This document shows positions 449 to 23,452 of a DNA stretch of 24,897 nucleotides, piece after piece. Origin of the DNA: a virus (taxonomy: Duplodnaviria; Heunggongvirae; Uroviricota; Caudoviricetes). Every line of letters begins with the position of its first letter. Within the stretch, counting starts at the first letter, position 1. The notes beneath the pieces are model-generated. The model worked only from the letters and a program-made list of their open reading frames with translations, made no database searches and was not told the DNA's origin. The translations under genes and the position numbers were made by a program. The stretch covers positions 1-24,897 of IMG/VR virus record IMGVR_UViG_2547132278_000021; one strand, 5' to 3'.

Positions 449-2919
449 CAGAATCCCCCAACAGTAAGGCGAGGAATAACGGCAAGAACAGACAGCGGCA
501 ACGGGTCAAGCTGACGGATTCTTACACGTCCGTTTTTGCCCCAGTTACTGTCCAGTTTCACTTCTACTTTTCCGGTAGCGTCATCAACAGGATCATCGTA
601 GAACTCGAATTCACGCTGTGGATATTCGTACCATTTACCGCCGGGCGTAGTCGCCCAGATGCCGCGGCTGGCATTCACAACCAGAGTAACGGACGGGATC
701 ACCTGTTTTTTGTCCAGCAGCGTTTCCTGTCCGTTAATGTTGATATCCAGTGTTTCGAATTCAGCAGTTATTGGCAGGCCGATGTGCACTACAGCCCCCG
801 GTGATTCCAGCGTAACGGCACCTCCGGAAACTACTTTCTGTGGTTCCACGTTCGCATCAGAGAGGATGTTTACGGTCTGTCCTTCAAGATGAGACAGGCC
901 TCCAAATGTCCGGCGCGCCATCTGCCAGTTCGTGGTGGCCACATTCCTGAGGAATGGCGGGACGTTCCTGTTAGCACGAACCACTACAGCGGTATTGCTG
1001 GTTACAGAAATAATGTCGCAACGTAATTCTTTTGACACTTCATCTCCAGTATCAGGAACAGTTCCGGTATAAGGGAACTGTAGTTGCGCGCCGACATCAC
1101 TACTGGTGAAGTACGCACCACCAGAAACACTGATTGTATATTCCGCACGGTAATCCCATTCACCAGAACCACCAGTGATGGTCATCGTTCTGTCAGACGT
1201 ATTTCTTCCATCATAGCTAAGGCCAGAATCAACAAAGAAAGCATCTTCATCGCTGGTAAATAAACGGCTGGACAGTCTCTCGATGTATCTCACTGTTTGC
1301 CCGTTAACGGTTCTGTTAACGACGAAATACACCGCATCTTCATTGCCTTCGCTGATACTGCATGTGCTTTCATATTTTCCGGTACTGGATTGTGGTGCCC
1401 ATGCAAAAACCTGCTGATCACGCAAATAGGTCATCACCAGTAATTTACCGTCATCACGAATGCAGAAGGCGCTGGAGTAAGGGACAATCGAGAAGCACCA
1501 GTCAACAATGCTGTGCTTCTGAAAAAGATGATTGGCAAGGATAGTCAGGTCGTTCCCCTGATAGCCGTCAACATCGAATGAATAGGCCAGATCACGGACA
1601 ACACTGCCTTTCTCCTGGACGAACAGAGCAATATTCGCCACAGCAATTGGTGGGACGTTGCTCGAGCCATTTGATCCCTGAGAGCTGAATGCAAATGATG
1701 ATGGGGTTAACACTTTGTTCTGGTCGCCGGTGATGACGTACTCACCTCCGGAAGTCAGTGCCACCAGCGAACCGACATCAATCAGGTGGCGGATCTCATT
1801 AACCTGACGCCCGGCATAGGTGTAGATAATTCTGTCGTCATCCTGCGTAGGATTGCTTTTGCCAAAATCCTTATAATCCCCGGTACGGCTGGCCCAGATA
1901 GTCTGAGGGAACGCAGTCGATGCGGCGAAGTAAAGACGTTGTTGATAATAAACAACAGTGCCAGGATAACCATTAACACTGTTCCAGGCATATTTAGCCC
2001 ATTTATAGCTGGCATTATCCTCGCCAACTACCTGCGAAGGGATATAGGAAATCACCTCGGCAGTTGCAGTAGTTCCATTTGCAGCAGTGATACGGGCAAT
2101 GCCAAAACCACTGTGCAGATATTCCCACTCAATGCCAGTATCATCATCACCGGATCCGCCCCAGCCATCCCATGATGTGCCTTCTGTATGCGAAGGGCGC
2201 AAAGTGCCTGTTTTGCCTGCTGTAACGGCGCGATAGTAGTTACTGTCTGCACGGCGAATATCGCCAATCGACGTACTCTTACTGGTTTCCCATACCTGCA
2301 CTGAATCCACTGCAGGCTGTTCCAGATAGAACAATTTGCCTACCTGCTCCGCGCCAAAAATAGAGGCGCTTGCCGTTAACGTAATTGTCCCGGTGCTGGC
2401 GCTGGCATAAACCGTCACTGACTCGTCAATATTGATATCTTCAAATGGCCCGTTCTTCGTTACCACATCAACCAGTTGCCAGTTGTCATGCGCATAGCGA
2501 CGCAACTCTTTCGGCGGGTATGCCGGATGAACCAGCGTAAGCACGTCTGCGCTTTGCGTGAATTTAATTCGGAACAGATCGGCTTCAGTATATGGAGTGG
2601 CAATTTCATAAATAACATTGCTGCTGTTCAGCACCAACGCACCATCTTTGATAACGCGCATGTACTGGTGTCCGAACTCCAGAGCATAGGTCTGAACCGT
2701 CGAGAACTGGAACGGGATCAGGCGGCATTTCCGATTTGGGTATTTGGCGGCACCGACAAAACGCGTACCAGGTCGATTCTCAACGCCGCCATACTGCCGC
2801 ACGATAAAGTTATCGCACTTGCGCAATGCCACCTGGTACTTCGCCATGTCGATACGTCCGTACAACGACGGTCCAATCTCACCACCAGCAAAGCTGGGCT
2901 GGATCCAACTGATAGCCAT
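448..2919 (-). CDS. Large virion/tail structural protein (823 aa); by position and size resembles a podovirus tail tube/nozzle protein, the type often annotated 'phage stabilisation protein'
   Basis: Long ORF with ATG at 2919-2917 overlapping the upstream stop (TGATG). Last large gene of the head-tail operon, after a ~200-aa protein, mirroring the T7 gp11/gp12 order. Family assignment is by architecture, not alignment. Confidence 0.6.
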
Positions 2920-3524
2920 CAGGACAACCTCGCAATGGTAAACTCATCAACCGGTGGCTGAGGTTCCTGTGATTCATTCTGGCTATGCGAGCCAGCACTA
3001 AGAATCACGCGATTGTACATATTGAGGGCAAACGTACCGAGGTCTGCATTCCCAGTCAGCGCCATGTTAATGGCTGCCGCAAGACGCCAGGCCAGCGCCT
3101 CCATAAAAATGGCATCAAACATGTTTACATCTGAAACTCGAGAGACATACTTGAGCCATGCCTGCGGCTGGTCTGTGTAGATCAACTTTCCTGTTCCGTT
3201 GGTGTCTGCACCCACTTCGTACTGGACGCGCATTGCTGCTGTTGGATTGCGTACACCAGGAAGCATAATTTCAGTAATGCGCAGACAATCGGACGGATAC
3301 TGGTACGCATATTCCCAGTCAGGCGGTGGATTGTTCGTATCTGCAAGCACCACGCGTTTGGTAGCAAAGTTCCAGTCAAAATCAGAAAGCACAGCATCAC
3401 GGCAGGCCTCAAAGTGCAGTGAACATTCCCCCGCTTCCTTGCTGGCTTCCTTCAGGCTGTTAATGCTGCGGCTATTGCCAATATTGGACAGCGCACGATT
3501 GCAGATCTCTACTACAGAGGCCAT
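2919..3524 (-). CDS. Virion protein (201 aa), candidate tail adaptor/tubular protein A-like by position
   Basis: ORF coupled to both neighbours by overlapping start and stop codons; size and position match the gene preceding the large tail protein in podoviruses. Confidence 0.5.
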   Translation of the reverse strand: MASVVEICNRALSNIGNSRSINSLKEASKEAGECSLHFEACRDAVLSDFDWNFATKRVVLADTNNPPPDWEYAYQYPSDCLRITEIMLPGVRNPTAAMRVQYEVGADTNGTGKLIYTDQPQAWLKYVSRVSDVNMFDAIFMEALAWRLAAAINMALTGNADLGTFALNMYNRVILSAGSHSQNESQEPQPPVDEFTIARLS

Positions 3525-3847
3525 TACTCACCACCATTGCCGTACAGCGTTTCAGCCGCTGATTTTTCTACATCCCCGGAAACAGGAGCGATCGCCATAT
3601 CAGTGATCTGCAGATCGGCGCTGCGATTAACACCATCGTCAGTTTCTCTGGCAGACAGGCCTCGAATAACAGCCTTTGCAGTTATCATCACTTCTGTTCC
3701 GACGCCCTGAGGTTGCGCCTTCAGCTTATTCAATGTGTCGTTATTAAGAGTGATGCACAGCCCCCACGGGTATTCATCGCGAGTTCTGGTTTCTCCGCTC
3801 TCATCCTGGTAGCTGTCAGTGCCGGTTTTGAGGTTTACGAGTTCCAT
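3524..3847 (-). CDS. Hypothetical small virion/head-completion protein (107 aa from ATG 3847)
   Basis: ORF in the structural operon; ATG at 3847 preceded by AGGAG with 5-nt spacing. Track start 3853 is a GTG two codons upstream. Confidence 0.5.
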   Translation of the reverse strand: MELVNLKTGTDSYQDESGETRTRDEYPWGLCITLNNDTLNKLKAQPQGVGTEVMITAKAVIRGLSARETDDGVNRSADLQITDMAIAPVSGDVEKSAAETLYGNGGE

Positions 3848-3897
3848 ATACACTCCTGCAATAAAGGGGCCGAAGCCCCTTGTCTGATTCGCGAGGC

Positions 3898-4233
3898 TTA
3901 CACGCCCAGTTCTTTACGCTTATCTGCGATCTTCTCGCGGAGCGTTTCGGCTTTGGCGTTATGGTGTGGCTTCTCGTTAAAGAGCAATTCGTACTCTTCA
4001 CGGAGCTTATCCAGTTCACCATCATCTGACACATCATTGATGATTTTGGTGCTGGTTGCTGCCATAGACACCTTTCCTGCTACCTTTGCTTTTGCCTGTC
4101 TGGCTGCATCGTTAACAGGTTCCAGTGCGCTACCAGGCTCACCTTCGTATTCGATTTCTGCCCCCTCCGGCCACAGAGTGTTATGGATATGAGAGAGGCG
4201 CAGAACGCGGTATCTTGGTTTCTCACCTGACAT
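3898..4233 (-). CDS. Hypothetical small virion protein (111 aa from ATG 4233)
   Basis: ATG at 4233 preceded by AAGGTGA with 5-nt spacing; track start 4242 is a GTG. Lies between capsid and tail genes. Confidence 0.5.
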   Translation of the reverse strand: MSGEKPRYRVLRLSHIHNTLWPEGAEIEYEGEPGSALEPVNDAARQAKAKVAGKVSMAATSTKIINDVSDDGELDKLREEYELLFNEKPHHNAKAETLREKIADKRKELGV

Positions 4234-4243
4234 CAATATCACC

Positions 4244-4681
4244 TTAACCGGTTACTTTTGAGCGGATCGGATACGGCGTATTGGCATCAACATCAAGACT
4301 GATACCCGCAGTGAATTCGCCAGCCGTTAGTGGGCCAGTTGCGACGGAGTAGTTAACACGCAGATATCGCTGAACACCGGCAGGAACCTTTGCAGAAACA
4401 ACTCGTTTACCTGCTGTCAGGGCGGTCTTTGCCAGTGCACCACTATCATAAATAGTGGTCCATGAGCTGTTATTCTCACTCGTCTGCAACTGGATGTTTA
4501 CAGTTGCCTCACCACTTGCCGTGGCGGCTTCGTTAACCAGCGCCCAAAACTCAAGCGGGTAACCCACGCCGATATCACGACGTTTTCCGTCAATTGGACC
4601 GAGATCGATTACGTCAGTAGAAGCCGCGGTATTCGTAACCGCCTGAGCTTCGGAGAACATCAACAGTTTGTCGGTGATCAT
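4244..4681 (-). CDS. Hypothetical virion protein (145 aa), possible capsid decoration/accessory protein
   Basis: ORF immediately downstream of the major capsid gene; Gly/Thr/Ala/Val-rich composition. Function inferred from position only. Confidence 0.45.
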   Translation of the reverse strand: MITDKLLMFSEAQAVTNTAASTDVIDLGPIDGKRRDIGVGYPLEFWALVNEAATASGEATVNIQLQTSENNSSWTTIYDSGALAKTALTAGKRVVSAKVPAGVQRYLRVNYSVATGPLTAGEFTAGISLDVDANTPYPIRSKVTG

Positions 4682-4732
4682 CTTCTTTCTCCATTAGTGG
4701 GTCTGTTACGACCCACAGGTTAATAACAGGCG

Positions 4733-6431: not shown

Positions 6432-6728
6432 TCACTCCTGTTCACTGGCCTCTTTGGCCATCTTCAAATACTGTTCAGGGCAATGCGCCATAACGCGCTG
6501 AAACAGTTCCAGCGCCAGATTGCGTTGCCCCTCATTAAATGCCATTGCCATAGCATCCATCGGAGAGATAGCGGAAAACACCCGGCCTTTCTCCAGCACA
6601 GACCAGACAACGCGACGCCCCTGTTCACTGCTCATGACAAAGCGAATGTCATCAATTTCACGCTGTGCCATGTCACGTTGCTTACGGGCGTTTTCTTCTT
6701 TCAGTTGATCGTCCTCGTAATCTGTCAT
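6432..6728 (-). CDS. Hypothetical 98-aa protein between portal and scaffold
   Basis: ATG 6728-6726 overlaps the portal stop (ATGA coupling); charged helical protein. Confidence 0.55.
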   Translation of the reverse strand: MTDYEDDQLKEENARKQRDMAQREIDDIRFVMSSEQGRRVVWSVLEKGRVFSAISPMDAMAMAFNEGQRNLALELFQRVMAHCPEQYLKMAKEASEQE

Positions 6729-9052: not shown

Positions 9053-9129
9053 GTGGCATTAGCTCAGTTGGACAGAGCAACCGCCTTCTAAGCGGTTGGT
9101 CGCAGGTTCGAATCCTGCATGCCACGCCA
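9053..9129 (+). tRNA. tRNA-Arg (anticodon TCT, decodes AGA)
   Basis: 77-nt cloverleaf folded by hand: acceptor GTGGCAT/ATGCCAC, D stem GCTC/GAGC, anticodon stem ACCGC/GCGGT with loop CTTCTAA (U33, TCT, A37), T arm GCAGG-TTCGAAT-CCTGC, discriminator G, encoded CCA. Confidence 0.9.
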
Positions 9130-9327: not shown

Positions 9328-9653
9328 ATGAACGACCAGCAAATCGAAAAAGAAATCGTTGAGAAAGGCAAAACCGCTCCGCGAGTTACGCCTCAATATA
9401 TCGAAAGCATCATTCTTGAAGAGCATTTCTTTACTGCTTAGACGGCATTCGTGCTGCCAATATGGGCGTTGGCGATTCATGGACAGCGCATAAATCTACA
9501 GACCTCCTGACTTTCTGCGTATTGGTACTGAAGAATGGCTTCACCGTCACCGGAGAGAGTGCCTGTGCAAGTCCGGAAAATTTTGATGCAGAAATTGGTC
9601 GGAAGATTGCCCGGCAGAATGCTGTAAACAAAATCTGGATGCTTGAAGGTTAA
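9328..9653 (+). pseudogene. Gp49-like small phage protein gene (Phage_gp49_66-type) disrupted by a frameshift
   Basis: ATG 9328 with AGGTGAG Shine-Dalgarno encodes MNDQQIEKEIVEKGKTAPRVTPQYIESIILEEHFFTA then TAG at 9439-9441. The adjacent frame continues from 9441 (DGIRAANMGVGDSW...LKNGFTVTGESACASPENFDAEIGRKIARQNAVNKIWMLEG) to TAA 9651-9653; the two frames join with a 2-nt offset. Confidence 0.5.
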
Positions 9654-9686
9654 TTGCTGAAGCAGAAGTTAAGCGAGCAATAACAC

Positions 9687-9773: not shown

Positions 9774-11249
9774 TTAAGCATAGGGATCGTAATCTGTAAT
9801 GGCCTTGCCTTGCTGGTTCTGCTGCCCGGGAATTCGCAGGCGCTTTGACACCGGGAAAGCAAACGTCAGCAGTAGCGCATCGCCTTTACCAGGCGAACGC
9901 CCAAGTCGTTCTTTGATATCTTCCTTCGGTTCGATAACGATTTTACCGTCCACGCGAACTTTGTACTCTGCCGCCGACAGGTCGTCTGCAGTTTCCTGGT
10001 CATCCAGCATGCCGCCTAGCCTCAGCCATGTCTTGCATGAGTTGAACATCTCCCCACGCTTGTTGAGCATCTGCGGGTCAGTAGACGCGCCACCGAACGG
10101 AACAAGTTGCCATGTACGACCCCAGCCGTCACCGATTGACTTCAAACCGGTTCCGTAACCGAAGTCGATGAACACCGCGTCAGCCTGATACTGGTCTTCA
10201 AAGTCAGCGATACGCTTCGCCATAATCAGATCGTCGGTAGTCTTGTTGCCAGTCCACAGCACCTTACTGTGCAGCCCCTGCCGCAGGTATATCACAGCGT
10301 CATCAACGCCTGAGTATGCCGGGTCAACGCCGATTATCACCGGAGCATGTGCAACCTGCGCAGCGGTTACCACCCGTTTCATTGCCTCATCAGTAAGACC
10401 GGTAGGGATAAACTGCAATTCAGATGCATCAGGGAATATGCCGCGCACACGGACCTTCACGAAGTCGCTGTCCTCGCCATGGTCTTCAATCCATTTTTGA
10501 ATCTGCTCTTTGTTCGTTCCTTCGACGGTACGGCTGTCGATCTGCTTCGTAACCCAGCGGTGTTTATATTTGCGGAAGCATTCCCTGAAACGCCCGGAGT
10601 TACGCGTAGGGTTTCCGAACGCTACCCAGATGATTTCCGTGTCTTCGTCCGTCAGCGCACCCTCGGCCACCTCCCAAACTTTATCAGCAATGTTTGACGC
10701 CTCATCGAATACCACGATGATCCGCTTACGCTCGTTGTGCAGGCCGGCGAACGCCTCGGTGTTGTGCTCAGACCACGGGATTGCGTCAGCGCGCCAGCGT
10801 TTATCGTGGCCCGGATCATTGCTGTACATGGCTGTTGCTGGGGTAGAGAACCAGTCTTTCGTGATGGACAGGTTTGCCCACTTAATCACTTCAGGCCATG
10901 TCTTGGTACGCAGCTGATTTTCGGTGTTGGCAGTGACTACTGCTTTGCAGTCTTCGCAGGTTGACATACCCCAGTTCAGGAGCATGGAAATACCCGCACT
11001 TTTCCCTATGCCGTGGCCTGAAGAAACGGCAATCATCAGCGGCTGATGACGGGTTTCTGGGTTCCTGAGGTGCTCACCAACCGTATCGAGCATCCATCTT
11101 TGCCAGTTTCTTGGTCCGGATGCATGCGCCAGCTCTGTACCCTCTTCCCCCCACGGGAACGCATAGAGGGCATAGCCAAGCGGATCGTGAGTGAACCCTG
11201 CTATATCCTCGATCAACTGCTCTTCAGGAGATAACGATGTATCTGTCAC
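9774..11249 (-). CDS. terL: Terminase large subunit (491 aa)
   Basis: N-terminus SPEEQLIEDIAGFTHDPLGYALYAFPWGE..., a Walker-A-like GHGIGKSAG and an acidic VVFDEASNI stretch, then a nuclease-sized C-terminal domain. GTG start at 11249 overlaps the terS stop (GTGA). Confidence 0.85.
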   Translation of the reverse strand: MTDTSLSPEEQLIEDIAGFTHDPLGYALYAFPWGEEGTELAHASGPRNWQRWMLDTVGEHLRNPETRHQPLMIAVSSGHGIGKSAGISMLLNWGMSTCEDCKAVVTANTENQLRTKTWPEVIKWANLSITKDWFSTPATAMYSNDPGHDKRWRADAIPWSEHNTEAFAGLHNERKRIIVVFDEASNIADKVWEVAEGALTDEDTEIIWVAFGNPTRNSGRFRECFRKYKHRWVTKQIDSRTVEGTNKEQIQKWIEDHGEDSDFVKVRVRGIFPDASELQFIPTGLTDEAMKRVVTAAQVAHAPVIIGVDPAYSGVDDAVIYLRQGLHSKVLWTGNKTTDDLIMAKRIADFEDQYQADAVFIDFGYGTGLKSIGDGWGRTWQLVPFGGASTDPQMLNKRGEMFNSCKTWLRLGGMLDDQETADDLSAAEYKVRVDGKIVIEPKEDIKERLGRSPGKGDALLLTFAFPVSKRLRIPGQQNQQGKAITDYDPYA

Positions 11250-11884: not shown

Positions 11885-11911
11885 CAAAATAAAGCCGCCA
11901 TAGTTGGCGGC
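11885..11911 (-). terminator. Intrinsic terminator hairpin upstream of terS
   Basis: Minus-strand GCCGCCA-ACTA-TGGCGGC followed by TTTATTTTG. Confidence 0.5.
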
Positions 11912-11951: not shown

Positions 11952-11965
11952 CGTGACATGTCACA
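11952..11965. repeat. 14-bp element CGTGACATGTCACA, copy 2, overlapping the stop of the Cys-rich gene
   Basis: Identical to 9687-9700. Confidence 0.8.
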
Positions 11966-12299
11966 CTATTAATTTCGTTTCATGCCAGCCTTTAGTCACC
12001 CAGCATTGCGAGTCACCATTACACGGGCATGAATTAACTGGAACTCTCTCGCCGCACTTACCGCAACATTTTCTGCTGATCGATTTTATACGCCCGCGCA
12101 CGCGTGCATCATCCTGGCGGATCAGTAACGCTATATACTCACCAAATTCGTAAGGCGCACGCCCGGGGCGACGCGTGGCACAGTTACGCTCCAGCATTTC
12201 AATTTCCTGAGCATCAAGCACAATTTCCAGCTTACGCACACCAGATGCAGCTTGTCTGGCTCTCTGAGCGGCTTTGCGCTCTGCTGCTGATTTAGCCAT
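11961..12299 (-). CDS. Hypothetical Cys-rich protein (112 aa) with basic Arg/Ala-rich N-terminus
   Basis: ATG at 12299. N-terminus [24 protein letters not shown]-terminus [22 protein letters not shown] suggests metal binding. Sits immediately upstream of the palindrome, terminator and terminase genes. Confidence 0.5.
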
Positions 12300-12633
12300 T
12301 CTGATTTTCCTGCATCATGAGAAATACAATCATGGCGGCGCGGAGAGGTCTGGTATCAAATATTGGTCTTACGCCTTTTGCATCAACACACCATTCAGTT
12401 AACTGGTCTAAGATAGAAATCCTGTGTTTCTCAATAATCGGCCATGAGGCGCTAGGATCATTGCAGTAGTCAGGTAAATGGTTTAATGGCTCAAAAGTTG
12501 TATCAGTATTTCCGTAATACCATTTGTTGGTGTTATTCCCTGATGTTTCCGGTTTACATGCCCAAAGGCCTTTAAAAATTATGTCTCCTACCATTCTGTT
12601 AATTTCAAAATCACTTAACTGTGAATAGTCCAT
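12292..12633 (-). CDS. NinX-like (DUF2591-type) phage protein, 113 aa
   Basis: ATG 12633 overlaps the upstream TGA (ATGA) and follows AGGAGGTG. Family assignment from memory of the [13 protein letters not shown]-terminus; tentative. Confidence 0.5.
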
Positions 12634-13547
12634 CACTTCACCTCCTGCGGCGGTTCTGGTAGAGGCATCCAGTGGGTTACACCGCCAATTGGCTCATCGT
12701 CGTCGTACTCCAATGCGGCTATATAGAACCCGTCACGACGAGAATAAGAAATCCCGGACATTACAATGCCATCCGAAACAACAATAATGTCACCCGTTTC
12801 TTTCGGCATTCGCTCACTACAGCTTATCCAGGCATCCAGAGTTACCGGAACTTGTGGAATGGCTGTCTGCTCTCGAACGTCATTAGGCGCTATAGGTTCT
12901 GCTGCCAACTGACTGGCATATTTGTTAATGGTAACGATAAGCTCTTGCTCAGCCTCATCCAGACAATCACCGATACCTCGCCTGTCACCGTCAAAATCAT
13001 CGAAATCGGCACGAATCCTGGCAACCTTCAGGATTGCGGACAACACCTCACTAGGAATTGCCGGATAGTTGGTTGACGTTTCCGCGATTTCCCGAAAATT
13101 ATTGGTTGACGAATTCTTATTTTCCCGAAAGTTTCCGGACTGAAGCATGGCGGCGCGGCAGGCGTTCCAGCCAGCTGTTCGCCCAAGCGCGTAAACTTCA
13201 GATGGCTCAAGATAATCAATGTCATGCCCGTCCTCATCGTCGTTCTCAGGTAATGCAGCAGGTACTACCGGTACTGGCGGAGCGGCGTAGACTTCAATAA
13301 TCCCATTATCAATAGGCCATTCTCCATCCTTGAGATAGTCACTTGTGCCGTCAACTTGCTGTTCAGCAATGTGGAATGCACCAACTGGCTCTGCTGCCAG
13401 CGATGCCAATGCGATTTCCAAAACAGCAATATCCATTTTATATGTGCGGATGATGTCATGGTCGATTGTGCCTGGTATGCACAGTCTCTGTGCTTCAATA
13501 GTCTCCTCTGCGTGAGTTATTAACTGCTCTCTGGTAAAAGTGGTCAT
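12633..13547 (-). CDS. Hypothetical phage protein (304 aa) with C-terminal DUF551-like motif
   Basis: Ends ...[17 protein letters not shown], characteristic of DUF551 C-termini. Strong AAGGAG Shine-Dalgarno 6 nt before ATG 13547. Confidence 0.6.
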
Positions 13548-13557
13548 GTGTTACTCC

Positions 13558-13821
13558 TTAACCCGCAGTGCTTTCAACTGATGAGGGGAACAAAATCTTT
13601 TCATCAAACCCTGCATTCATATCATGAACAGCAACACACCAATCCACCGACGAACGATTATCAAGAGCCTCCATGATTTCATCCATGCGGCGTAGGTCAT
13701 ACAGGTAAATGTTTTTATCGCCAATGGTGTAAAAGCCAATTTTTTTCGGTGATGGACAGCGATCAATGACGTCCTGTAATTCGTTCAACCATGCCTGTTC
13801 TTTTTTTGTCAAAGTTGCCAT
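13558..13821 (-). CDS. Hypothetical protein (87 aa from internal ATG 13821)
   Basis: ATG 13821 preceded by AAGGAAAA; track start 13911 would overlap the upstream gene. Confidence 0.45.
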   Translation of the reverse strand: MATLTKKEQAWLNELQDVIDRCPSPKKIGFYTIGDKNIYLYDLRRMDEIMEALDNRSSVDWCVAVHDMNAGFDEKILFPSSVESTAG

Positions 13822-13822
13822 A

Positions 13823-14041
13823 TCAGTTTTCCTTATACGGATTAATTTTATTGTGCAGTGTGTTGAACGGGGCCCATACAACGTCGTTATACAATTCAAT
13901 AACGGGCTCAATTACTTTTCCGATTATCCAGGCCAGTAATAGCGGGGATATCGGTATCATCAACACGATAAACAGAATGAGAAACAAAAATTCTGTCGCT
14001 CTACTTTTTCGCGGATATTCTTTTCTGAATAATGTAGTCAT
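13823..14041 (-). CDS. Small membrane protein (72 aa, one predicted transmembrane helix)
   Basis: Basic N-terminus then hydrophobic FLFLILFIVLMIPISPLLLAWIIG. Locally AT-rich by eye, and preceded by a 143-bp AT-rich gap containing palindromes. Confidence 0.5.
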   Translation of the reverse strand: MTTLFRKEYPRKSRATEFLFLILFIVLMIPISPLLLAWIIGKVIEPVIELYNDVVWAPFNTLHNKINPYKEN

Positions 14042-14125
14042 TTCTTACCGCCCTTTCGGACGGTCTCCTGATGTTCTGAGGGTGCAGGAATCCCTCCGGT
14101 TAAGGATTAAATTTTATTTACAGAA

Positions 14126-14152
14126 CTGAATTTAATTATTCAGATATACGTA
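14126..14152. promoter_or_regulatory. Palindrome-rich AT-rich intergenic region upstream of the small membrane protein gene
   Basis: CTGAAT-TTAATT-ATTCAG inverted repeat (14126-14143) and ATACGTAT (14145-14152). Confidence 0.3.
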
Positions 14153-14184
14153 TCTGTAACCTTACGAACCTACTCACTGGATGC

Positions 14185-14658
14185 CTATTTCATAAAAATA
14201 ATCCAGTGGGTTTTATCGTTTTTTCCTGTTCGTTGACCGATAACAGGCTTTCTGTCGGTCAGTGCCAATATTTGGCGAACAGGTATTTGCGTTTCATTCC
14301 ATTTAAAAATCAGAACGCCGTATGGCCACAACACACGAAAGGCTTCTTTAAATCCCTGCCGCAAATCATCACGCCAGGTATCTTTATTCATCCGTCCATA
14401 TTTCTTTCTCATCCAGGCGTTATCACCAACACGTTCAAGATGCGGAGGGTCGAATACAACAACCGGAAACGATGCGTCTGCAAATGGTAATGCACGAAAA
14501 TCTGCTATCAGGTCAGGGCTAATTATCAGCCGTCGTCCATCACATAATGTGTGCTCTTCCTTTCTGATATCGCTAAATATCGCCCGGTCGTCATTCTTAT
14601 CGAACCAGAACATGCGACTGCCACAGCACATGTCGAGGATTGTTGCATGTCCAGTCAC
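14185..14658 (-). CDS. Small phage Dam-like N6-adenine DNA methyltransferase (157 aa)
   Basis: SAM-binding motif I-like ILDMCCGS near the N-terminus and catalytic DPPH (DPPY-type) motif in VVVFDPPHL. GTG start at 14658 overlaps the upstream TGA. Confidence 0.6.
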   Translation of the reverse strand: MTGHATILDMCCGSRMFWFDKNDDRAIFSDIRKEEHTLCDGRRLIISPDLIADFRALPFADASFPVVVFDPPHLERVGDNAWMRKKYGRMNKDTWRDDLRQGFKEAFRVLWPYGVLIFKWNETQIPVRQILALTDRKPVIGQRTGKNDKTHWIIFMK

Positions 14659-15188
14659 TGGTTGCCTCCTTTGCGAAGCTGGGAGGCTAACTCATCACAT
14701 ATGTGCGTCAAAGAGCAAAGTTTGATTGATGGATGTTCGCGCATCATCTCCACCCCCTGTGCCCGTACTTCAGCCAGGAAAGCGTCGGTAGCTGGAATGG
14801 GCTTTTGTGGTGATATGGCTATGAGAATTGTCTCAAGGTCTGGATCCGTTTCCGCTGTTGGTACCCTGATATAACCCATCTGCACCCCATTCATGATGAA
14901 CCTGCGACGGTCATCACATATCGCCTTTAGCCCCGCATTCTCCGCAGCCAGCACCGAAAACTTCTCGTGTGCCAACTTAACAGCCGCATCAGCCTGCTTA
15001 ATTGACTCAATCGCTTTCTGCTGGTCTTCGGCCAGCGCATTAGCACGCACCAGTTGCACTTCCAGTTGCGTTGCCAAATCGCTGATCAGCTTTGCCACAC
15101 TGCGCATATCAACGGCACCACATTCTGCTTTCAGTTCCGAAGCCATCTCATGCCCGGCGGAAACTAACCCTTTGATATTACTTTCCAT
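14655..15188 (-). CDS. Hypothetical protein (177 aa), coiled-coil N-terminal half
   Basis: ATG 15188 preceded by GAGGG; no recognisable catalytic motif. Confidence 0.5.
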   Translation of the reverse strand: MESNIKGLVSAGHEMASELKAECGAVDMRSVAKLISDLATQLEVQLVRANALAEDQQKAIESIKQADAAVKLAHEKFSVLAAENAGLKAICDDRRRFIMNGVQMGYIRVPTAETDPDLETILIAISPQKPIPATDAFLAEVRAQGVEMMREHPSIKLCSLTHICDELASQLRKGGNQ

Positions 15189-15711: not shown

Positions 15712-16512
15712 TTACTTGATAAATCCTGCCGCCTTTCCCCGCCTGTATTCCTCCATCAGCCACTGCGCCGGTGTTATTCCCCCAAGGGTGGCGGCGTTAG
15801 GCATGCACCCGAAACTTCGCCCTGGTGGATGGTAAACGTCTCTCCCTGTGTCCGGAGGTGTACTCATGGGCTCTGGCTTTGCCTGTATGCTGATCACCGG
15901 ATCGGGTATCTGCTGTCCGGAAGCCACCTTTTTCGCCCAATCATCGAGCAGCCTGCGCGCGTGTTTCTCAACCTCAATCTCGCTAAGCTGGCGCTGATAC
16001 ATTGCACGGCGGGTATCACATACGACCCAGTACATAACCGGATGTCGCCACGGGAATCTTTCGGGACCACCAGGATATAAACTTTTTTCCTTGCTGTACC
16101 GGTGAAACTCCGCCATCACATCGTCAATGGTGACGCCAAGAACCATCTTGCTGTCTTTGCACCACTTGATAAATTGCCCTGGCGACGGCCAGAACGGAGA
16201 TTCACTGGCGCGGGCGTGGCGCATACCAGCAGAAACCTGTTCACGGGTTCGGATCCCCCCTTCGGCAAACGCAGCAATCCACTGCTGTTTTGCAGCAACT
16301 TCCTGCTCTGGCGTCTTCAGGTTGGTTACCACTGCCGCCGGAAACAGTTGTTTCAACTGTTTGAAAAGGGCATCAACAAGCCTCTCTGCTGACATGTTCA
16401 CCACATTGTCATTGTTGACGTACTGATGCTCATAACCTGACATGCGAGAAAGGGCTTCTCCGTCACGGTTTTGTATCGCGGTAAAAACGTTGTTCACAAG
16501 AAATCCTCCCAC
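15712..16512 (-). CDS. Lambda P-like replication protein (helicase loader), 266 aa; start codon uncertain
   Basis: QWIAAFAEGGIRTREQVSAGMRHARASESPFWPSPGQFIKWCK parallels the lambda P core (QWVLAFRENGITTMEQVNAGMRVARRQNRPFLPSPGQFVAWCR, recalled from memory). Track start is a GTG overlapping the O-like gene 3' end. Confidence 0.8.
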   Translation of the reverse strand: MGGFLVNNVFTAIQNRDGEALSRMSGYEHQYVNNDNVVNMSAERLVDALFKQLKQLFPAAVVTNLKTPEQEVAAKQQWIAAFAEGGIRTREQVSAGMRHARASESPFWPSPGQFIKWCKDSKMVLGVTIDDVMAEFHRYSKEKSLYPGGPERFPWRHPVMYWVVCDTRRAMYQRQLSEIEVEKHARRLLDDWAKKVASGQQIPDPVISIQAKPEPMSTPPDTGRDVYHPPGRSFGCMPNAATLGGITPAQWLMEEYRRGKAAGFIK

Positions 16513-17357
16513 GCTTCAGGGCTGTTCCAGTGCGGAACGTTGTTATCAGGTAATGTTGATTGCTTCTGTCTGCTAATCTGCAGCCGCCTTGCCAGCTTCT
16601 GCTCCCACTGTGCCTGATGGTATGCCTTACCCTCAGCCATCCAGTAAATTCTGAACTCTGCAAGTTCCTGTGCCGTTGGCAGACTGTCCAGGTAGATTCC
16701 CTGCAATGAGCTTTTCCGAAGAAAGTCATCTGATGGCTGCCATTGTTCATGCATGACAAATTTGCCTAATTGCCCTGGCCCACCAGGAGGAACAAAGTTA
16801 TTCATCACGGCGTTGTTTGCGCCGGGGTCATGAGGCACAGAATCCCCGGTTTTTGTCCTGCTCTCCCTCTCTTGGTTAAATGACTGGTTATATGACTGGT
16901 TCTGGATCCCGTTTTTGGGATCATTCAACATCCCGTTTTTGGGATCATTCAACATCCCGTTTTTGGGATCATTCAACATCCCGTTTTTGGGATCATTCAA
17001 CATCCCGTTTTTGGGTATATTCCCGTTTTCGGGAACATTACCGTTTTCGGGTTCATTACCCCCTTCCCGGTTGCCTTTAATGTTCCCTTTTTTGGTTATA
17101 TTAAGAGAGAAAACCCGTACTCTTTTCGTCGCCCCCTTTCTCTCTCCGGTATCTGAAATAAGCCCCATTTTCATGAGCGATATAAGCCCGGCCTGCACGG
17201 TTTTTTTATTCAGGCAAGTGTCTTTAACGAGGCGTTCTATGCTGGGGTAGCAGAGGTTATATTCATCGGCTCTGTCAGCCATCGAGAGCAGTATGAGCTT
17301 TAATGACGAGCTACCTGGATCTGTCTCCCAGGCCCAATCTGTTGCATGTCTGCTCAT
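16494..17357 (-). CDS. Lambda O-like replication initiator (287 aa) with internal origin repeats
   Basis: N-terminal winged-helix-like region (LKLILLSMADRADEYNLCYPSIERLVKDTCLNKKTVQAGLISL), central PKNGMLND repeats encoded by the iterons, and a C-terminal domain. GGAGA Shine-Dalgarno before ATG 17357. Confidence 0.8.
   Translation of the reverse strand: MSRHATDWAWETDPGSSSLKLILLSMADRADEYNLCYPSIERLVKDTCLNKKTVQAGLISLMKMGLISDTGERKGATKRVRVFSLNITKKGNIKGNREGGNEPENGNVPENGNIPKNGMLNDPKNGMLNDPKNGMLNDPKNGMLNDPKNGIQNQSYNQSFNQERESRTKTGDSVPHDPGANNAVMNNFVPPGGPGQLGKFVMHEQWQPSDDFLRKSSLQGIYLDSLPTAQELAEFRIYWMAEGKAYHQAQWEQKLARRLQISRQKQSTLPDNNVPHWNSPEAWEDFL
16906..17001. repeat. Candidate replication origin iterons: four perfect 24-bp direct repeats (ATCCCGTTTTTGGGATCATTCAAC), with degenerate copies to ~17060
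   Basis: Seen directly in sequence. Each unit carries an ATCCC...GGGAT dyad. Location inside the initiator gene mirrors lambda ori. Confidence 0.75.
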
Positions 17358-18713: not shown

Positions 18714-18739
18714 AAGCCGCCTCATGGCGGCTTTTTTAT
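18714..18739 (+). terminator. Intrinsic terminator after the repressor gene
   Basis: GCCGCC-TCAT-GGCGGC followed by TTTTTT. Confidence 0.7.
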
Positions 18740-18750
18740 TGCCGAAAAGA

Positions 18751-18827
18751 TTACCTTGCAGGTAATTTTTTTAACTCATATCTATTGACATCAAACCAGA
18801 TACGCATAATTATTACCCCAACGGTAA
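18751..18827 (+). promoter_or_regulatory. pL-like promoter-operator cassette: operators TTACC-TTGCA-GGTAA (18751-18765) and TTACC-CCAAC-GGTAA (18813-18827) flanking -35 TTGACA (18785-18790) and -10 AATTAT (18808-18813)
   Basis: Consensus -35, 17-bp spacer; the proximal operator begins at the last base of the -10; operator centres 62 bp apart. Confidence 0.65.
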
Positions 18828-18846
18828 CAAGCCGAGGTAACAAGTT

Positions 18847-19008
18847 ATGCAGTGGAAAATCATCAACGGTTGGTACTGCGTTACTGCATGCGGATTCATG
18901 AGCTGGAAGTTCCGCACCTTACAGGAAGGCATTAAGTGGGCTTTCGTCAGCAAAGAAGCTCGCGATGTGGCCAACGATAACGAGATATGGGAGGAGGTTA
19001 GCAAATGA
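18847..19008 (+). CDS. Small Trp-rich protein (53 aa), first gene of the early-left operon; not in the ORF track
   Basis: ATG 18847 with GAGGT Shine-Dalgarno 8 nt upstream; stop TGA overlaps the next gene's ATG (ATGA). Translation MQWKIINGWYCVTACGFMSWKFRTLQEGIKWAFVSKEARDVANDNEIWEEVSK. Confidence 0.5.
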   Translation: MQWKIINGWYCVTACGFMSWKFRTLQEGIKWAFVSKEARDVANDNEIWEEVSK

Positions 19009-20039
19009 GTGAATTATCAATCATCGAAATCACACCAGACATGGCACCAAGAATTTACGTTGAAAAAGGGCTGGAAAAGTTTCTCGAGCAGATCCGTGAA
19101 GGTGTTAATGAAGTGCCTGACATTAGCACAGACAAAGGCAGAAAGCGCATTGCATCTCTGGCTGCGAAGGTTTCAAGAAGTAAAACAGCGGTAGAAAAAC
19201 CAGGACGTGATTATCTTAAACGCCTGAAAGAACAGCCGAAAGTAGTTGAAGCAGAGTTACGACGCTTCGTAACCGAATGCGATCGGCTTCGTGATGAAGT
19301 ACGCCGCCCACTCACCGAGTGGGAAAATGCTGAGAAATTACGCACTGAAGCACTGCAACAACGCCTGACAAATTTGCGAGCACTAGCTGACGTGATCGAT
19401 CTCTCCGGAAACTACTTGCCATCATCTGACATTCAGGAACGAATTCAAGAGGCTAAATCAGTAGCACTTGATGAAAGTTGGCAGGAGTACGCAGCAGAAG
19501 CTGGAGTAGCCAAGGATTCAACCATCCAGAAACTGGAAGAATCACTCGCAGTAGCTCAAAAACGCGAGCATGAAGCCGCTGAGCTGGAGCGACTTCGCAA
19601 AGAAGCGGAGGAAAAAGCGCGCATTGAGCGAGAAGAGAATATCCGCCGGGAAGCTGCTGAACAGGCCAGGCTCGAAGCTGAACAAAAAGCGAAAGCTGAA
19701 ATTGAGGCTGCGGCACGCCTGGCGGCGGAAGAAAAAGCACGTGCTGAAGTAGCAGAACGTCAGCGAATTGAAGCAGAGCAGCGTGCACGACGCCAAAAAG
19801 AAGAAGCCGTTGCCGAGGAACGCCGACGCCAAGAGGCGGCAGAAAAAGCCCGCCTTGACGAACAGAAGCGTATCGCCGACGAAGAAGCGCGCCGAGCTGC
19901 AGATAAAGAGCATCGCCGTACCGTTAACCGCAGAGTAATCGCAGATCTGATAGCCCAAGGCATACCCGAAGAATTCGCGCAGAAAGCAATGTTGGCTATC
20001 GCTGGCGGCAAAGTGCAGGACGCGTATATCAAATATTGA
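19005..20039 (+). CDS. Hypothetical coiled-coil protein (344 aa) of the early/recombination operon
   Basis: Strong GGAGGAGG Shine-Dalgarno; ~110-aa N-terminal domain, long E/A/R/K-rich heptad region, short C-terminal domain. Confidence 0.6.
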   Translation: MSELSIIEITPDMAPRIYVEKGLEKFLEQIREGVNEVPDISTDKGRKRIASLAAKVSRSKTAVEKPGRDYLKRLKEQPKVVEAELRRFVTECDRLRDEVRRPLTEWENAEKLRTEALQQRLTNLRALADVIDLSGNYLPSSDIQERIQEAKSVALDESWQEYAAEAGVAKDSTIQKLEESLAVAQKREHEAAELERLRKEAEEKARIEREENIRREAAEQARLEAEQKAKAEIEAAARLAAEEKARAEVAERQRIEAEQRARRQKEEAVAEERRRQEAAEKARLDEQKRIADEEARRAADKEHRRTVNRRVIADLIAQGIPEEFAQKAMLAIAGGKVQDAYIKY

Positions 20040-20046
20040 GGTGGGT

Positions 20047-20346
20047 ATGAACGTTAATCAGCAGAAAAATCTTCAAAAAATCATGCTGGCATTCGACAAG
20101 GACTACCGCCTGTCAGAACAGCTATATGACCGACAAGTTGAACTGATCGATAGCATCCGGCTTCATCAACTGGCCTCAACTTTTGACGCTGTAACAGGCA
20201 AAGGAGTTCGCCAGGAAGTGCTGGAGGCAGCTAAAGACAGCCCTGAGTTCGAAGAACTGATGGATGCCTACCGGCGCGAGGCAATGGCAATTATCGCCCG
20301 CTGGGATCTGGCGGATCGGATTGATGGGCAGAGGGAAGCGGCATGA
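20047..20346 (+). CDS. Hypothetical protein (99 aa from ATG 20047)
   Basis: ATG follows GAGGTGGGT; stop overlaps the RecE-like start (ATGA). Track start 20041 is a GTG. Confidence 0.5.
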   Translation: MNVNQQKNLQKIMLAFDKDYRLSEQLYDRQVELIDSIRLHQLASTFDAVTGKGVRQEVLEAAKDSPEFEELMDAYRREAMAIIARWDLADRIDGQREAA

Positions 20347-21164
20347 AACCGGGAATTTATTTCGACATCAGCAACGAAGACTACCACGCCGGTGACGGCG
20401 TGAGTAAGTCGCAACTGGACATGGTTGCCAAGAATCCGGCGCTTCTTAAATGGGTTCAGGCAGCACCAGAAGACGAAGAGAAAAAGTCTGCACTGGATAT
20501 GGGAACCGCATTGCACTGTCTGCTTCTGGAGCCTGGAGAATTCGACAAACGCTTCATTGTTTCACCGAAGTTCGATCGTCGGACGAAACAAGGTAAAGCT
20601 GACGAAGAAGCATTTCTTCGTGATGTAGCGGATATGGGGATTACGGTACTTGATGCCGAGCAGTGGCGGAAACTGGAGCTGATGCGTGATAGCGCAATGG
20701 CTCACCCGGCGGCACGCTGGATGCTGGAAGCACCTGGTTACTGCGAAGCATCAATGTACTGGAATGATGAAGAGACTGGTGAGTTGTGCCGCATTCGTCC
20801 AGACAAATGGCTGAACGAGCACAACGTGATCGTCGACGTGAAAAAGGTTGCAGATATGGACCGTTTTGCACGCCACATCGAGGAATTCCGCTACCACGTG
20901 CAGGACGCAATGTACCGCGAAGGCGCAATGAGGGTTACTGGTCAGCCGCATGGTTTTTTCTTTCTTGCCGTGAGCGAAAGCATTGATTGTGGTCGGTATC
21001 CGGTACGCGTGTTCGAGCTGGATGCGCAGGATGTCGATGCCGGGCACGCTCTGTTCCGCCGGGATCTGAATACCTATCACGAATGCCGCATCAATGATGA
21101 ATGGGGCGGTGTGGAAATCATTAAACGCCCTGAGTGGGCACGCAAACAGGATATGTACATATGA
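20343..21164 (+). CDS. RecE-like exonuclease (exonuclease VIII C-terminal-domain type, PD-(D/E)XK), 273 aa
   Basis: N-terminus MKPGIYFDISNEDYHAGDGVSKSQL and nuclease motifs ...RIRPDKW...IVDVKKV; immediately upstream of and coupled to recT. Confidence 0.65.
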   Translation: MKPGIYFDISNEDYHAGDGVSKSQLDMVAKNPALLKWVQAAPEDEEKKSALDMGTALHCLLLEPGEFDKRFIVSPKFDRRTKQGKADEEAFLRDVADMGITVLDAEQWRKLELMRDSAMAHPAARWMLEAPGYCEASMYWNDEETGELCRIRPDKWLNEHNVIVDVKKVADMDRFARHIEEFRYHVQDAMYREGAMRVTGQPHGFFFLAVSESIDCGRYPVRVFELDAQDVDAGHALFRRDLNTYHECRINDEWGGVEIIKRPEWARKQDMYI

Positions 21165-22102
21165 GCAACGACATCGCAAACATCAACGCACCAGTAGACA
21201 CAGCAATCGCTGGAACTGCTGCAACTATTTTCAGCCCAGACGGCTTGAACCAACTGATGAAATTCGCCGAGGTAATGGCGCAAAGCCGCGTAACGGTACC
21301 GGCGCACCTCGCCGGGAAACCAGCTGATTGCATGGCCGTGGCAATGCAGGCTGCGCAGTGGGGAATGAACCCGTTTGCCGTGGCTCAGAAAACCCATGTT
21401 GTGAACGGCACGCTAGGTTATGAAGCCCAATTAGTAAACGCAGTTATCTCAACGATGTCGCCAACAAAAGATCGCATCAACTACGAGTGGTTCGGGCCGT
21501 GGGAACGAGTGATCGGTAAGTTTGTTGAGAAAACATCCAAAAACGGCAATCCATATATCGCACCAGGCTGGACTCTAAAAGACGAAGAAGGCTGCGGTGT
21601 TCGCGTATGGGCAACCATGAAGGGCGAGGATCAACCTCGAGTGCTTGAGTTAATGCTGTCTCAAGCACAGGTAAGAAACTCCACACTTTGGGCCAGTGAT
21701 CCGAAACAACAACTCGCATACCTTGCGACAAAACGCTGGTCTCGCCTGCACTGTCCTGACGTAATCATGGGCGTCTACACCCCAGACGAATTACAGGAAA
21801 CGGCACCGCGCGTTGAGCGAGACATTACTCCGCAAACGACCACTGCTGCGGGAATGAACAGTCTGATCAACGCTAAACCAGCGAAAAAGCCTGATGAGCA
21901 AACGCGTAAATCGGACGGCCGTGATCCAGAAGAAATGCTGATGGCCTTTACCAGCGCAGCGATGAATTACAGCACTGTCTCCGAACTGGATAAGGCTTAC
22001 AAATACATTGCACAAAAACTTTCAGATGATGACGAACTGCTGACAAAAGCCACCGACGTTTACAGCGTTCGTCGGGAAGAATTAAACGAAACATCTATGT
22101 AA
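21161..22102 (+). CDS. recT: RecT-family single-strand annealing recombinase (313 aa from ATG 21161)
   Basis: Conserved region CMAVAMQAAQWGMNPFAVAQKTHVVNGTLGYEAQL. ATG 21161 overlaps the RecE-like TGA; the track's earlier start 21134 lies inside the upstream gene. Confidence 0.75.
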   Translation: MSNDIANINAPVDTAIAGTAATIFSPDGLNQLMKFAEVMAQSRVTVPAHLAGKPADCMAVAMQAAQWGMNPFAVAQKTHVVNGTLGYEAQLVNAVISTMSPTKDRINYEWFGPWERVIGKFVEKTSKNGNPYIAPGWTLKDEEGCGVRVWATMKGEDQPRVLELMLSQAQVRNSTLWASDPKQQLAYLATKRWSRLHCPDVIMGVYTPDELQETAPRVERDITPQTTTAAGMNSLINAKPAKKPDEQTRKSDGRDPEEMLMAFTSAAMNYSTVSELDKAYKYIAQKLSDDDELLTKATDVYSVRREELNETSM

Positions 22103-22151
22103 CCACCACCGCGGCGCCACACGCGCCGCACTGCAACCAAGAGAGGTATTT

Positions 22152-22400
22152 ATGAAAGGTGCATTAGGTAAGAAGGAACTCCTGGCGGTGGTGCCACTGT
22201 CATGGAGCACTATCGACCGTATGGAGCGCGCAGGGGAATTTCCTAAACGCTGGTATATCACCGATAAACGCTGCGCATGGAACCGTGACGAAGTTGAGCG
22301 TTGGCTTGATGAACGTCAAGCAGCAAGCCCGGCAGAGTTCCAGGGTAAAAAACCTCCTGTTCAGCAACGTGTATATCGTCCCGTGAGCAACGCTGCATGA
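22152..22400 (+). CDS. AlpA/Xis-family DNA-binding protein (putative excisionase), 82 aa
   Basis: LLAVVPLSWSTIDRMERAGEFPKRWYITDKRCAWNRDEVERWL fits the AlpA/MerR-type excisionase pattern; GAGG Shine-Dalgarno. Confidence 0.65.
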   Translation: MKGALGKKELLAVVPLSWSTIDRMERAGEFPKRWYITDKRCAWNRDEVERWLDERQAASPAEFQGKKPPVQQRVYRPVSNAA

Positions 22401-22509
22401 GTGCGCTGCTAAGGCACTGGAGCAAATGGTCAGGATGGTACTTATTCCTGGCCTCTGTTTCAGCATGGCTTTATCTGCTGGCATTAATTTTCAGAGAGGG
22501 TTGGATTAA

Positions 22510-22809
22510 GTGAGAAAGTTAAGCCGACTTGAAAAATATCACATGAACAAGGTTTCAATGCGCAGCCCTTCAAAGGTTGTTGCCGTTACTCCTGCGGCGA
22601 TAGAGATCGAAAAACGCGCGATTGAAAGAGAGAAAAAAGGGCAGTTCCGCATTGCCGCCCACCTTTGGCTTCAGTGTATGGATGTTGCTTCTGGTGATGT
22701 TGAGCGTGCAAGGATCGCGGTTCGCAGGGACCAATGTATCACAAAAGGTAACGGCCTTCGCCGTGGCGACTATAGCGGAATAGGATGTTGCGGGGTGGTT
22801 TATGACTAA
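22510..22809 (+). CDS. ANR-like small regulator (start uncertain: GTG 22510, ATG 22543 or ATG 22558)
   Basis: Pattern G.F..AA.LW.......E.AR..A.RRD.C resembles small ANR-family proteins (from memory); 3' end overlaps the MT-A70 start. Confidence 0.4.
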   Translation: MRKLSRLEKYHMNKVSMRSPSKVVAVTPAAIEIEKRAIEREKKGQFRIAAHLWLQCMDVASGDVERARIAVRRDQCITKGNGLRRGDYSGIGCCGVVYD

Positions 22810-23452
22810 GAAATACACGCTAATATATGCAGATCCACCCTGGGTATACCGGGACAAAGCCGCAGATGGTAATCGCGGTGCCGGTTTTAAATATCCGGTT
22901 ATGAGTGTGCTGGATATCTGCCGCCTTCCTGTGTGGGATTTGGCCGATGAAAACTGTCTGTTGGCCATGTGGTGGGTGCCAACACAACCACTCGAAGCAC
23001 TAAAAGTTGTTGAAGCCTGGGGATTCCGTCTTATGACCATGAAGGGCTTCACGTGGATAAAATGTGGTAGTCGGCAACCAGATAAACTGGTTATGGGTAT
23101 GGGACACATGACTCGCGCCAATAGTGAAGATTGCCTGTTTGCGGTAAAGGGAAAACTACCTCCGCGCATTAATGCAGGTATCGTTCAGTCATTTACCGCA
23201 CCGCGGCTTGAGCATTCAAGAAAACCAGATGTCGTTCGTGAAAAACTTGTGCAATTGTTAGGCGATGTTTCTCGCATTGAACTGTTCGCCCGCCAGTCGT
23301 CTCATGGCTTCGATGTTTGGGGTAATCAGTGCGAAGACCCAGCAGTGCAACTACACCCTGGATACGCGTTGGATATTGGCGGGTTAACAAATGCATTCAG
23401 AAATGCTCCGCTGTCACCAACAGACAACCAGGGGCGGGAGCGTGCAGCATGA
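22802..23452 (+). CDS. MT-A70-family adenine methyltransferase (216 aa)
   Basis: N-terminal LIYADPPWVY catalytic DPPW motif typical of MT-A70-like phage methyltransferases. Confidence 0.75.
   Translation: MTKKYTLIYADPPWVYRDKAADGNRGAGFKYPVMSVLDICRLPVWDLADENCLLAMWWVPTQPLEALKVVEAWGFRLMTMKGFTWIKCGSRQPDKLVMGMGHMTRANSEDCLFAVKGKLPPRINAGIVQSFTAPRLEHSRKPDVVREKLVQLLGDVSRIELFARQSSHGFDVWGNQCEDPAVQLHPGYALDIGGLTNAFRNAPLSPTDNQGRERAA

Follow-up and report, generated by a model that had tools for sequence, protein, structure and literature searches.

Across 1,695 prokaryotic species, the commonest distance between neighboring genes is by far −4, followed by −1 and −8 (PMC10666635). Among the overlapping reading frames of viral reference genomes, those shifted by +2, which come mostly from double-stranded DNA viruses, form the commonest class, and nearly all of them are overlaps of 1 nucleotide (nt), T[AG]ATG, or 4 nt, ATGA (PMC8903798). 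Here, we describe overlaps of this kind in a 24,897-nt stretch of viral DNA (IMG/VR record IMGVR_UViG_2547132278_000021, positions 1 to 24,897; referred to here as the window), which is a Uetakevirus (phiV10/epsilon15-like) prophage of Escherichia coli and belongs to a group of temperate podoviruses. Twelve of its 33 same-strand gene junctions share exactly 1 or 4 nt, and termination-reinitiation coupling of the neighboring genes is probably the best explanation of this arrangement.

The termination-reinitiation (TeRe) pairs of E. coli and Haloferax (Huber et al. 2019, PMC6728339; PMC10666635) and the classical trpB-trpA pair carry a signature identical to that of the window, namely, ATGA or TGATG with a Shine-Dalgarno (SD) motif inside the upstream gene. 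Among 14 overlapping pairs that were tested, 5 of them from E. coli, 13 were strictly coupled, and the contribution of the SD motif was variable (PMC6728339). Coupling drops steeply with intergenic distance and is almost abolished at a spacing of about 20 nt, and short overlaps are 4.5-fold enriched among the subunits of E. coli complexes (PMC10666635). The E. coli TeRe pairs and the window have the E. coli translation machinery in common, and both are enriched for complex partners. The TeRe pairs were assayed with reporter constructs, whereas the junctions in the window are known from sequence alone. Short-range junctions (−8 to +6) are about twice as frequent in the window (16/33, or 48%) as among the unidirectional gene pairs of E. 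coli (24%) (PMC10666635).

Phage lambda likewise uses −4 (ATGA) and −1 overlaps, found at 15 and 2, respectively, of its 61 same-strand junctions. The overlapping lambda pairs are A/W, W/B, Z/U, H/M, M/L, O/P, P/ren, bet/exo, nin genes, and R/Rz, and the types of functional pair shared with the window are initiator and helicase loader, exonuclease and annealing protein, and head and tail assembly genes. The two phages differ in that lambda is a siphovirus and the window a podovirus, and their structural genes have no detectable DNA similarity. In addition, lambda has the order bet then exo, whereas the window has the exonuclease gene followed by recT, and three of the overlap starts in the window are GTG. 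Stop/start overlaps make up 12/33 junctions in the window and 17/61 in lambda (Fisher's exact test, P = 0.48); the density of overlaps is therefore ordinary for a temperate coliphage and no greater than that of lambda. The early operon of the related phage Tyrion has 7 of its 11 junctions at −1 or −4.

Other Uetakevirus genomes (epsilon15, phiV10, TL-2011b, phiv142-3, Tyrion, and 65FD) share with the window both their gene order and their overlaps at homologous junctions. These genomes share a run of consecutive 1-nt overlaps through the genes for the staple, the adaptor, the nozzle, and the internal virion protein. By megablast, the window is 96 to 97% identical in DNA to phiv142-3, PAS61, ZX5, and TL-2011b across 77 to 87% of its length, and prophages in E. 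coli chromosomes match 86 to 90% of it at 96 to 97% identity. Its structural genes are about 75 to 82% identical in DNA to those of epsilon15 and Tyrion. DNA identity and gene order across the structural, replication, and recombination modules place the window within Uetakevirus. This copy differs from the other genomes in that its gp13-like gene contains the end of an insertion sequence (IS), IS100, its Gp49-family gene is a pseudogene, and a mosaic nin-like segment (12300 to 14922) carries a lambdoid NinX gene.

Stop/start overlaps at the gene junctions

The original prediction listed 11 overlaps of stop and start codons. Each listed coordinate was read directly on the coding strand, and all 11 overlaps are present. 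A table of junctions was also built for the whole gene model, in which genes had been annotated by transfer from relatives together with Pfam and PHROG scans. Of the 33 same-strand junctions, 14 overlap (eight by 4 nt, four by 1 nt, and two by 8 nt), and two further junctions lie at +1 and +2. The earlier list omitted a GTGA at 16494 to 16497 and the 8-nt overlaps at 12292 to 12299 and 22802 to 22809. At 12 junctions, the overlap between adjacent same-strand genes is exactly 1 nt (T[AG]ATG) or 4 nt ([AG]TGA), and both partners are real genes with the overlap codon as the likely true start; every partner has annotated homologs or a PHROG or Pfam match. The prediction had also described several of the starts as GTG. 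GTG is indeed found at 11249 and 14658, but no other listed start is GTG (2 of 11, or 3 of 12 when the unlisted start at 16497 is counted). The fact that 12 real genes begin exactly at the upstream stop has a binomial P value of 2e-15 under a null of uniform spacing from −20 to +150, a test that is partly circular in that the starts were chosen by the analyst or by annotation pipelines.

Four overlaps lie among the structural genes on the minus strand. At 3522 to 3526 (TAATG, −1), the stop of the gp10 capsid-staple gene overlaps ATG 3524 of the adaptor/connector gene; relatives vary between TAA and TGA here, and the 1-nt overlap is kept. At 2917 to 2921 (TGATG, −1), the adaptor/connector stop overlaps ATG 2919 of the nozzle/tail gene, where epsilon15 has TAATG at the equivalent place. 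At 446 to 450 (TGATG, −1), the stop of the nozzle/tail gene (448 to 2919) overlaps ATG 448 of the gp13-like gene for an internal virion protein, and TGATG is also found in the E. coli relative L001, epsilon15, and Tyrion. At 6725 to 6728 (ATGA, −4), the portal stop overlaps ATG 6728 of a Bbp19-family gene. Further upstream on the same strand, the small-terminase stop overlaps GTG 11249 of the large-terminase gene (GTGA, −4, 11246 to 11249).

Three more minus-strand overlaps lie in the gene run from 17954 down to 11961. The stop of the DnaT-like/O-like initiator gene overlaps the GTG of the P-like helicase-loader gene at 16494 to 16497 (GTGA, −4), the unlisted case named above. The Ea22-like stop overlaps the GTG of a DNA-methyltransferase-like gene of 157 amino acids (aa) at 14655 to 14658 (GTGA, −4). 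At 12631 to 12636, the sequence GTGATG joins the stop of a DUF551 gene (304 aa) to two candidate NinX starts, ATG 12633 (−1) and GTG 12636 (−4). The NinX stop in turn shares 8 nt (12292 to 12299) with the ATG of a 112-aa gene that matches phrog_536, a transcriptional regulator.

On the plus strand, all four overlaps are ATGA at −4. The stop of a 53-aa open reading frame (ORF) at 18847 to 19008 overlaps the ATG of a gene for a 344-aa coiled-coil protein (19005 to 19008); the 53-aa ORF falls below the 60-aa cutoff of the ORF list, yet it matches phrog_898 at E = 3e-38, and a match to phrog_1376 is also found at this junction. At 20343 to 20346, a 99-aa gene ends in a stop that overlaps the ATG of the PD-(D/E)XK exonuclease gene, and the exonuclease stop overlaps ATG 21161 of recT at 21161 to 21164, where the longest ORF would begin at GTG 21134. 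At 23449 to 23452, the stop of the MT-A70 methyltransferase gene overlaps ATG 23449 of a DUF1382 gene, for which the longest ORF would begin at GTG 23329. The MT-A70 ATG itself lies within an 8-nt overlap (22802 to 22809) with the stop of a PerC-family gene.

Conservation of overlap spacing

In epsilon15 and Tyrion, none of the five structural junctions departs from its −1 or −4 spacing. TGA and TAA replace each other as the stop codon at these conserved junctions, as do GTG and ATG as the start codon; the position of GTG 11249, for example, aligns with ATGA in epsilon15 and Tyrion and with GTGA in L001. Nonoverlapping spacers of the same block vary. The spacer between the genes for the major capsid protein and the cement protein is 51 nt in the window and 12 nt in epsilon15, the spacing between the cement gene and the next gene is +10 in the window and −8 in epsilon15, and another nonoverlapping spacer measures 50 versus 64 nt.

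Outside the structural block, the junctions of exonuclease and recT, the 99-aa gene and exonuclease, MT-A70 and the next gene, and initiator and loader are retained in 65FD, phiEt88, or Tyrion. The junction of the 99-aa gene and the exonuclease gene is ATGA in 65FD and TGATG (−1) in phiEt88, and the initiator/loader GTGA is also found in L001, L002, and Tyrion.

Two overlaps coincide with the ends of mosaic homology. The NinX gene is 96% identical to the P22-like/lambdoid ninX (ST104/P22), and this homology ends exactly at 12633. The window and 65FD are near-identical up to the ATGA at 23449 and unrelated beyond it. The mosaic nin-like segment itself (12300 to 14922) is missing from the closest Uetakevirus relatives.

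Start codons at the overlaps

In 7 of the 12 cases, no start codon precedes the overlap codon in its ORF, and the next candidate lies 9 to 52 codons downstream with a poor SD motif. Profile ends or homolog N termini support the starts at 2919, 3524, 6728, 11249, 14658, 16497, 21161, and 23449. For the nozzle (start 2919), which has a solved homolog in 8ck1, the alignments to phrog_376 and phrog_20269 begin at residue 1. For the adaptor (start 3524), phrog_394 aligns 1 to 200 with residues 1 to 189, and the alignment with the solved PDB structure 8ck1_E ("Connector Protein") also begins at residue 1. The Bbp19-family protein (start 6728), which had no solved homolog in the PDB comparison, aligns with phrog_528 from 1 to 98 over its 98 residues. 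GTG 11249 is the first start codon in the large-terminase ORF. For the methyltransferase-like gene starting at 14658, phrog_11564 aligns 2 to 93 with residues 2 to 93; its ST-35 homolog aligns with the 157-aa protein from residue 1, and the ST-35 gene itself begins in a GTGATG overlap.

The original prediction held that, for several genes, the overlap codons are better starts than those of the longest ORFs. Comparison with homologs and profiles bears this out at 21161 and 23449, as well as at the unlisted 16497. For the helicase loader, the alignment pairs position 2 of phrog_109 with residue 7 of the long ORF and so places the start at 16497 and not at 16512. In recT, ATGAGC at 21161 is conserved in L001, L002, 65FD, and the Erwinia phage phiEt88, and GTG 21134, the start of the longer ORF, is CTG in phiv142-3. 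In the DUF1382 gene, positions 1 to 63 of phrog_292 align with residues 41 to 103 of the long ORF, which places the start at 23449 and not at 23329.

Not every overlap marks a start. At the peptidase gene, GTG 6435 is the longest-ORF start and overlaps the Bbp19 stop (6432 to 6435, minus strand). This GTG is probably not used, since the aligned sequence in epsilon15 is GTAA and ATG 6429, two bases beyond the Bbp19 stop, is common to all relatives. Likewise, the stop-overlapping ATG or GTG codons at 11964, 17727, and 22397 open only short dead-end frames. An overlap alone is no proof of a start, as the case of 6435 illustrates, and comparison with homologs is needed. For NinX, either ATG 12633 or GTG 12636 may be the start, although the spacing of the SD motif (AGGAGGTG, 5 nt before ATG 12633) favors the ATG. 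At the small-terminase gene, PGAP (the Prokaryotic Genome Annotation Pipeline) chose TTG 11920 in a relative. A start at ATG 11839 appears more likely, because a terminator-like hairpin with a T-run (11911 to 11894, minus strand) lies inside the longest small-terminase ORF and the shorter form is annotated in epsilon15, Tyrion, and phiv142-3.

Evidence for the proposed translational coupling and alternative explanations

At the level of sequence, the arrangement has every defining feature of the textbook stop/start overlap, which is already known biology, and the original prediction that the overlaps are a sign of translational coupling holds in the same terms (overlap type, co-directional gene runs, SD motifs, and conserved spacing). 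In the proposed mechanism, a ribosome finishing the upstream gene would already be placed on the downstream start and would re-initiate there, aided by the SD motif within the coding region that it has just translated. Each downstream gene would thereby be translated in dependence on its upstream neighbor, and coupling would be expected to fix the relative amounts of the partner proteins. On the basis of the published E. coli experiments (PMC6728339, PMC10666635), we infer that re-initiation, and not independent initiation, drives the downstream genes. Many of the putatively coupled pairs encode proteins that work together: the small and large terminase subunits, the O-like initiator and P-like loader, the exonuclease and RecT, and the staple, adaptor, nozzle, and internal virion protein.

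SD strength was calculated as predicted pairing to the 3′ end of 16S rRNA (the anti-SD sequence). All 12 overlap starts have an SD-like motif that lies within the upstream gene, with energies from −4.1 to −12.8 kcal/mol. An SD motif in this position is usual, though not obligatory, in enterobacterial overlaps. The mean SD energy was −8.4 kcal/mol for the overlap starts, −6.4 kcal/mol for the other 23 starts, and −2.3 kcal/mol for 761 internal ATG or GTG codons (overlap starts versus internal codons, P = 1.5e-8). The strongest motif is AGGAGGT at 19005 (−12.8 kcal/mol), and 14658 is preceded by AAGGAGG with a 6-nt spacer (−11.6 kcal/mol). For the plus-strand run, a good promoter-like site is present at 18785 to 18813, and no terminator-like hairpin was found on its coding strand from 18813 to 23643.

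Several observations weigh against coupling. The bare motif occurs at stop codons at a frequency near chance: an overlapping ATG or GTG is present at 16 of 34 stops, and A or G precedes 13 of 19 TGA stops compared with about 9.5 expected, an enrichment that is not significant by itself. Five of the 12 junctions (clearly 12633, 14658, 16497, and 19005) have an SD motif of −10 kcal/mol or stronger, which could support independent initiation. The unpaired probability from −15 to +5 was alike in all three classes of site, at 0.41 around overlap starts, 0.43 around other starts, and 0.42 around random internal positions; this similarity in local RNA structure gives no sign that occlusion of the ribosome-binding site forces dependence on upstream translation, and it is neutral with regard to structure-dependent coupling. 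Because this copy of the prophage is damaged (an IS100 insertion and one pseudogene), the arrangement may have been passed down without being in current use, and coupling in this element is itself something that we infer. The near-chance motif frequency, the SD-like motif at every overlap start, several of them strong, and the start regions without predicted occlusion are all compatible with overlaps that arose as a by-product of compaction and of the gain and loss of stop and start codons, with each downstream gene initiating independently from its own SD motif. A published simulation study likewise ascribes the distribution of short-overlap lengths in part to codon-replacement probabilities (PMC3887535). 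We nevertheless consider this explanation, the main rival to coupling, unlikely. The exact −1 and −4 spacings are kept over about 25% DNA divergence while neighboring nonoverlapping spacers drift, the tested native E. coli overlapping pairs were coupled, some even with the SD motif mutated (PMC6728339, PMC10666635), and the pairs involved are enriched for interacting partners.

A different concern is that some or most of the overlaps are artifacts of start calling, the true starts lying upstream or downstream so that the junctions are not real gene boundaries. The analyst, PGAP, and the depositors of phage records apply similar start heuristics, there are two possible starts at 12633 and 12636, GTG 6435 is probably not a start, and the PGAP choice of TTG 11920 looks wrong in view of the hairpin at 11911 to 11894. 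This account is very improbable for the set of overlaps, given that more than half of the overlap codons are preceded by no other start in their ORF and that the downstream alternatives have poor SD motifs. PHROG profile ends, a PDB homolog, and homologs in other genomic contexts share the first residue, and mosaic homology breaks exactly at the overlaps at 12633 and 23449. Least credible of all, to the point of near-certain rejection, is the idea that the −4 overlaps are programmed −1 frameshift sites that give fusions such as exonuclease-RecT. The phrog_561 profile (633 positions) does span both exonuclease and RecT, so fused or merged members exist. However, a slippery heptamer (X XXY YYZ) was found before the stop at none of the junctions, the exonuclease gene ending in ...GAT ATG TAC ATA TGA, every downstream gene carries a start codon and an SD motif of its own, and the genes are annotated separately in relatives. 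Frameshift fusion at the ATGA sites was therefore rejected.

Termination-reinitiation coupling thus remains the preferred explanation. An extension of it, which we regard as doubtful, is that the unbroken chain of 1-nt overlaps from staple to adaptor to nozzle to the gp13-like gene, which is found across the genus and in relatives extends through gp14 and further, might work as a ribosome relay, with losses at each re-initiation setting the very different copy numbers of these virion parts, and that the GTGATG double starts of NinX and the ST-35 methyltransferase might give two N-terminal isoforms. The practical value of the overlaps lies in annotation, since they provide better gene starts at 16497, 21161, and 23449 in this phage group. 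The junctions also point to gene pairs that probably yield their products in linked quantities. The understanding of phage gene expression is unchanged by them.

Gene organization and other features of the prophage

The genes of the window are packed in three long co-directional runs. The first run extends on the minus strand from 17954 down to 11961 and comprises genes for a cro-like protein, the O-like/DnaT-like initiator, the P-like helicase loader, DUF1064, Ea22-like, methyltransferase-like, DUF4014, and DUF551 proteins, NinX, and the regulator. The second run, also on the minus strand, extends from 11839 or 11920 (the alternative small-terminase starts) down to 1. It contains the small and large terminase genes and, after a 1.1-kb gap, the genes for the portal, Bbp19, the protease, the major capsid protein, the cement protein, the staple, the adaptor, the nozzle, and the gp13-like protein. 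The third run, on the plus strand from 18847 to 23643, holds the 53-aa ORF, the coiled-coil protein gene, the 99-aa ORF, and the genes for the PD-(D/E)XK exonuclease, RecT, a helix-turn-helix protein, PerC, MT-A70, and DUF1382. Within this run, the phrog_561 profile ("RecT-like") covers 20343 to 22102; its positions 2 to 268 match the exonuclease and its positions 267 to 567 match RecT, so some members of the family are fused or wrongly merged exonuclease-RecT proteins.

The initiator gene of the first run contains a perfect tandem array of 4.6 copies of a 24-bp unit at 16906 to 17015. Shorter arrays (12 bp × 2.4 and 18 bp × 3.1) flank it, and the whole region extends from 16873 to 17060. The array resembles the iterons of the replication origin within lambda gene O, and it probably represents origin iterons and a candidate replication origin.

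The 1.1-kb gap between the large-terminase gene and the small gene upstream of the portal gene contains a tRNA-Arg gene (anticodon TCT) at 9053 to 9129 on the plus strand, opposite to the flanking genes. It is annotated in relatives, too. A Gp49-family gene at 9328 to 9684 (plus strand) is a pseudogene with a frameshift near 9430 to 9438 and a premature stop at 9651 to 9653; E. coli JML285 has an intact copy of 118 aa.

The window does not hold a complete inducible genome. The IS100 end lies in the gp13-like gene, the Gp49-family gene is disrupted, and the rest of the prophage is beyond the limits of the window. Positions 1 to about 314 are the right end of an IS100kyp/IS21-family element (the 3′ end of istB), with 99.4% identity to E. 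coli copies. Phage homology begins at 307, which places the joint between IS and phage at about 307 to 314. An exact 50-mer spanning this joint had no match among the GTDB representative genomes. The gp13-like gene that starts at 448 is cut by IS100 after about 47 phage codons and stops after 54 aa, making it a truncated pseudogene. An IS at this site was found in none of the best-matching E. coli prophages, which are about 96 to 97% identical. This copy of the prophage is therefore interrupted and probably defective.

At the other end of the window, the integrase ORF (minus strand) begins with a GTG at the last base of the window and ends at 23647, two codons shorter than in E. coli JML285. 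In E. coli chromosomes, guaA adjoins the integrase end of related prophages. The integrase and DUF1382 genes are convergent and lie 3 nt apart in the window, whereas they overlap by 4 nt in JML285 (23641 to 23649).

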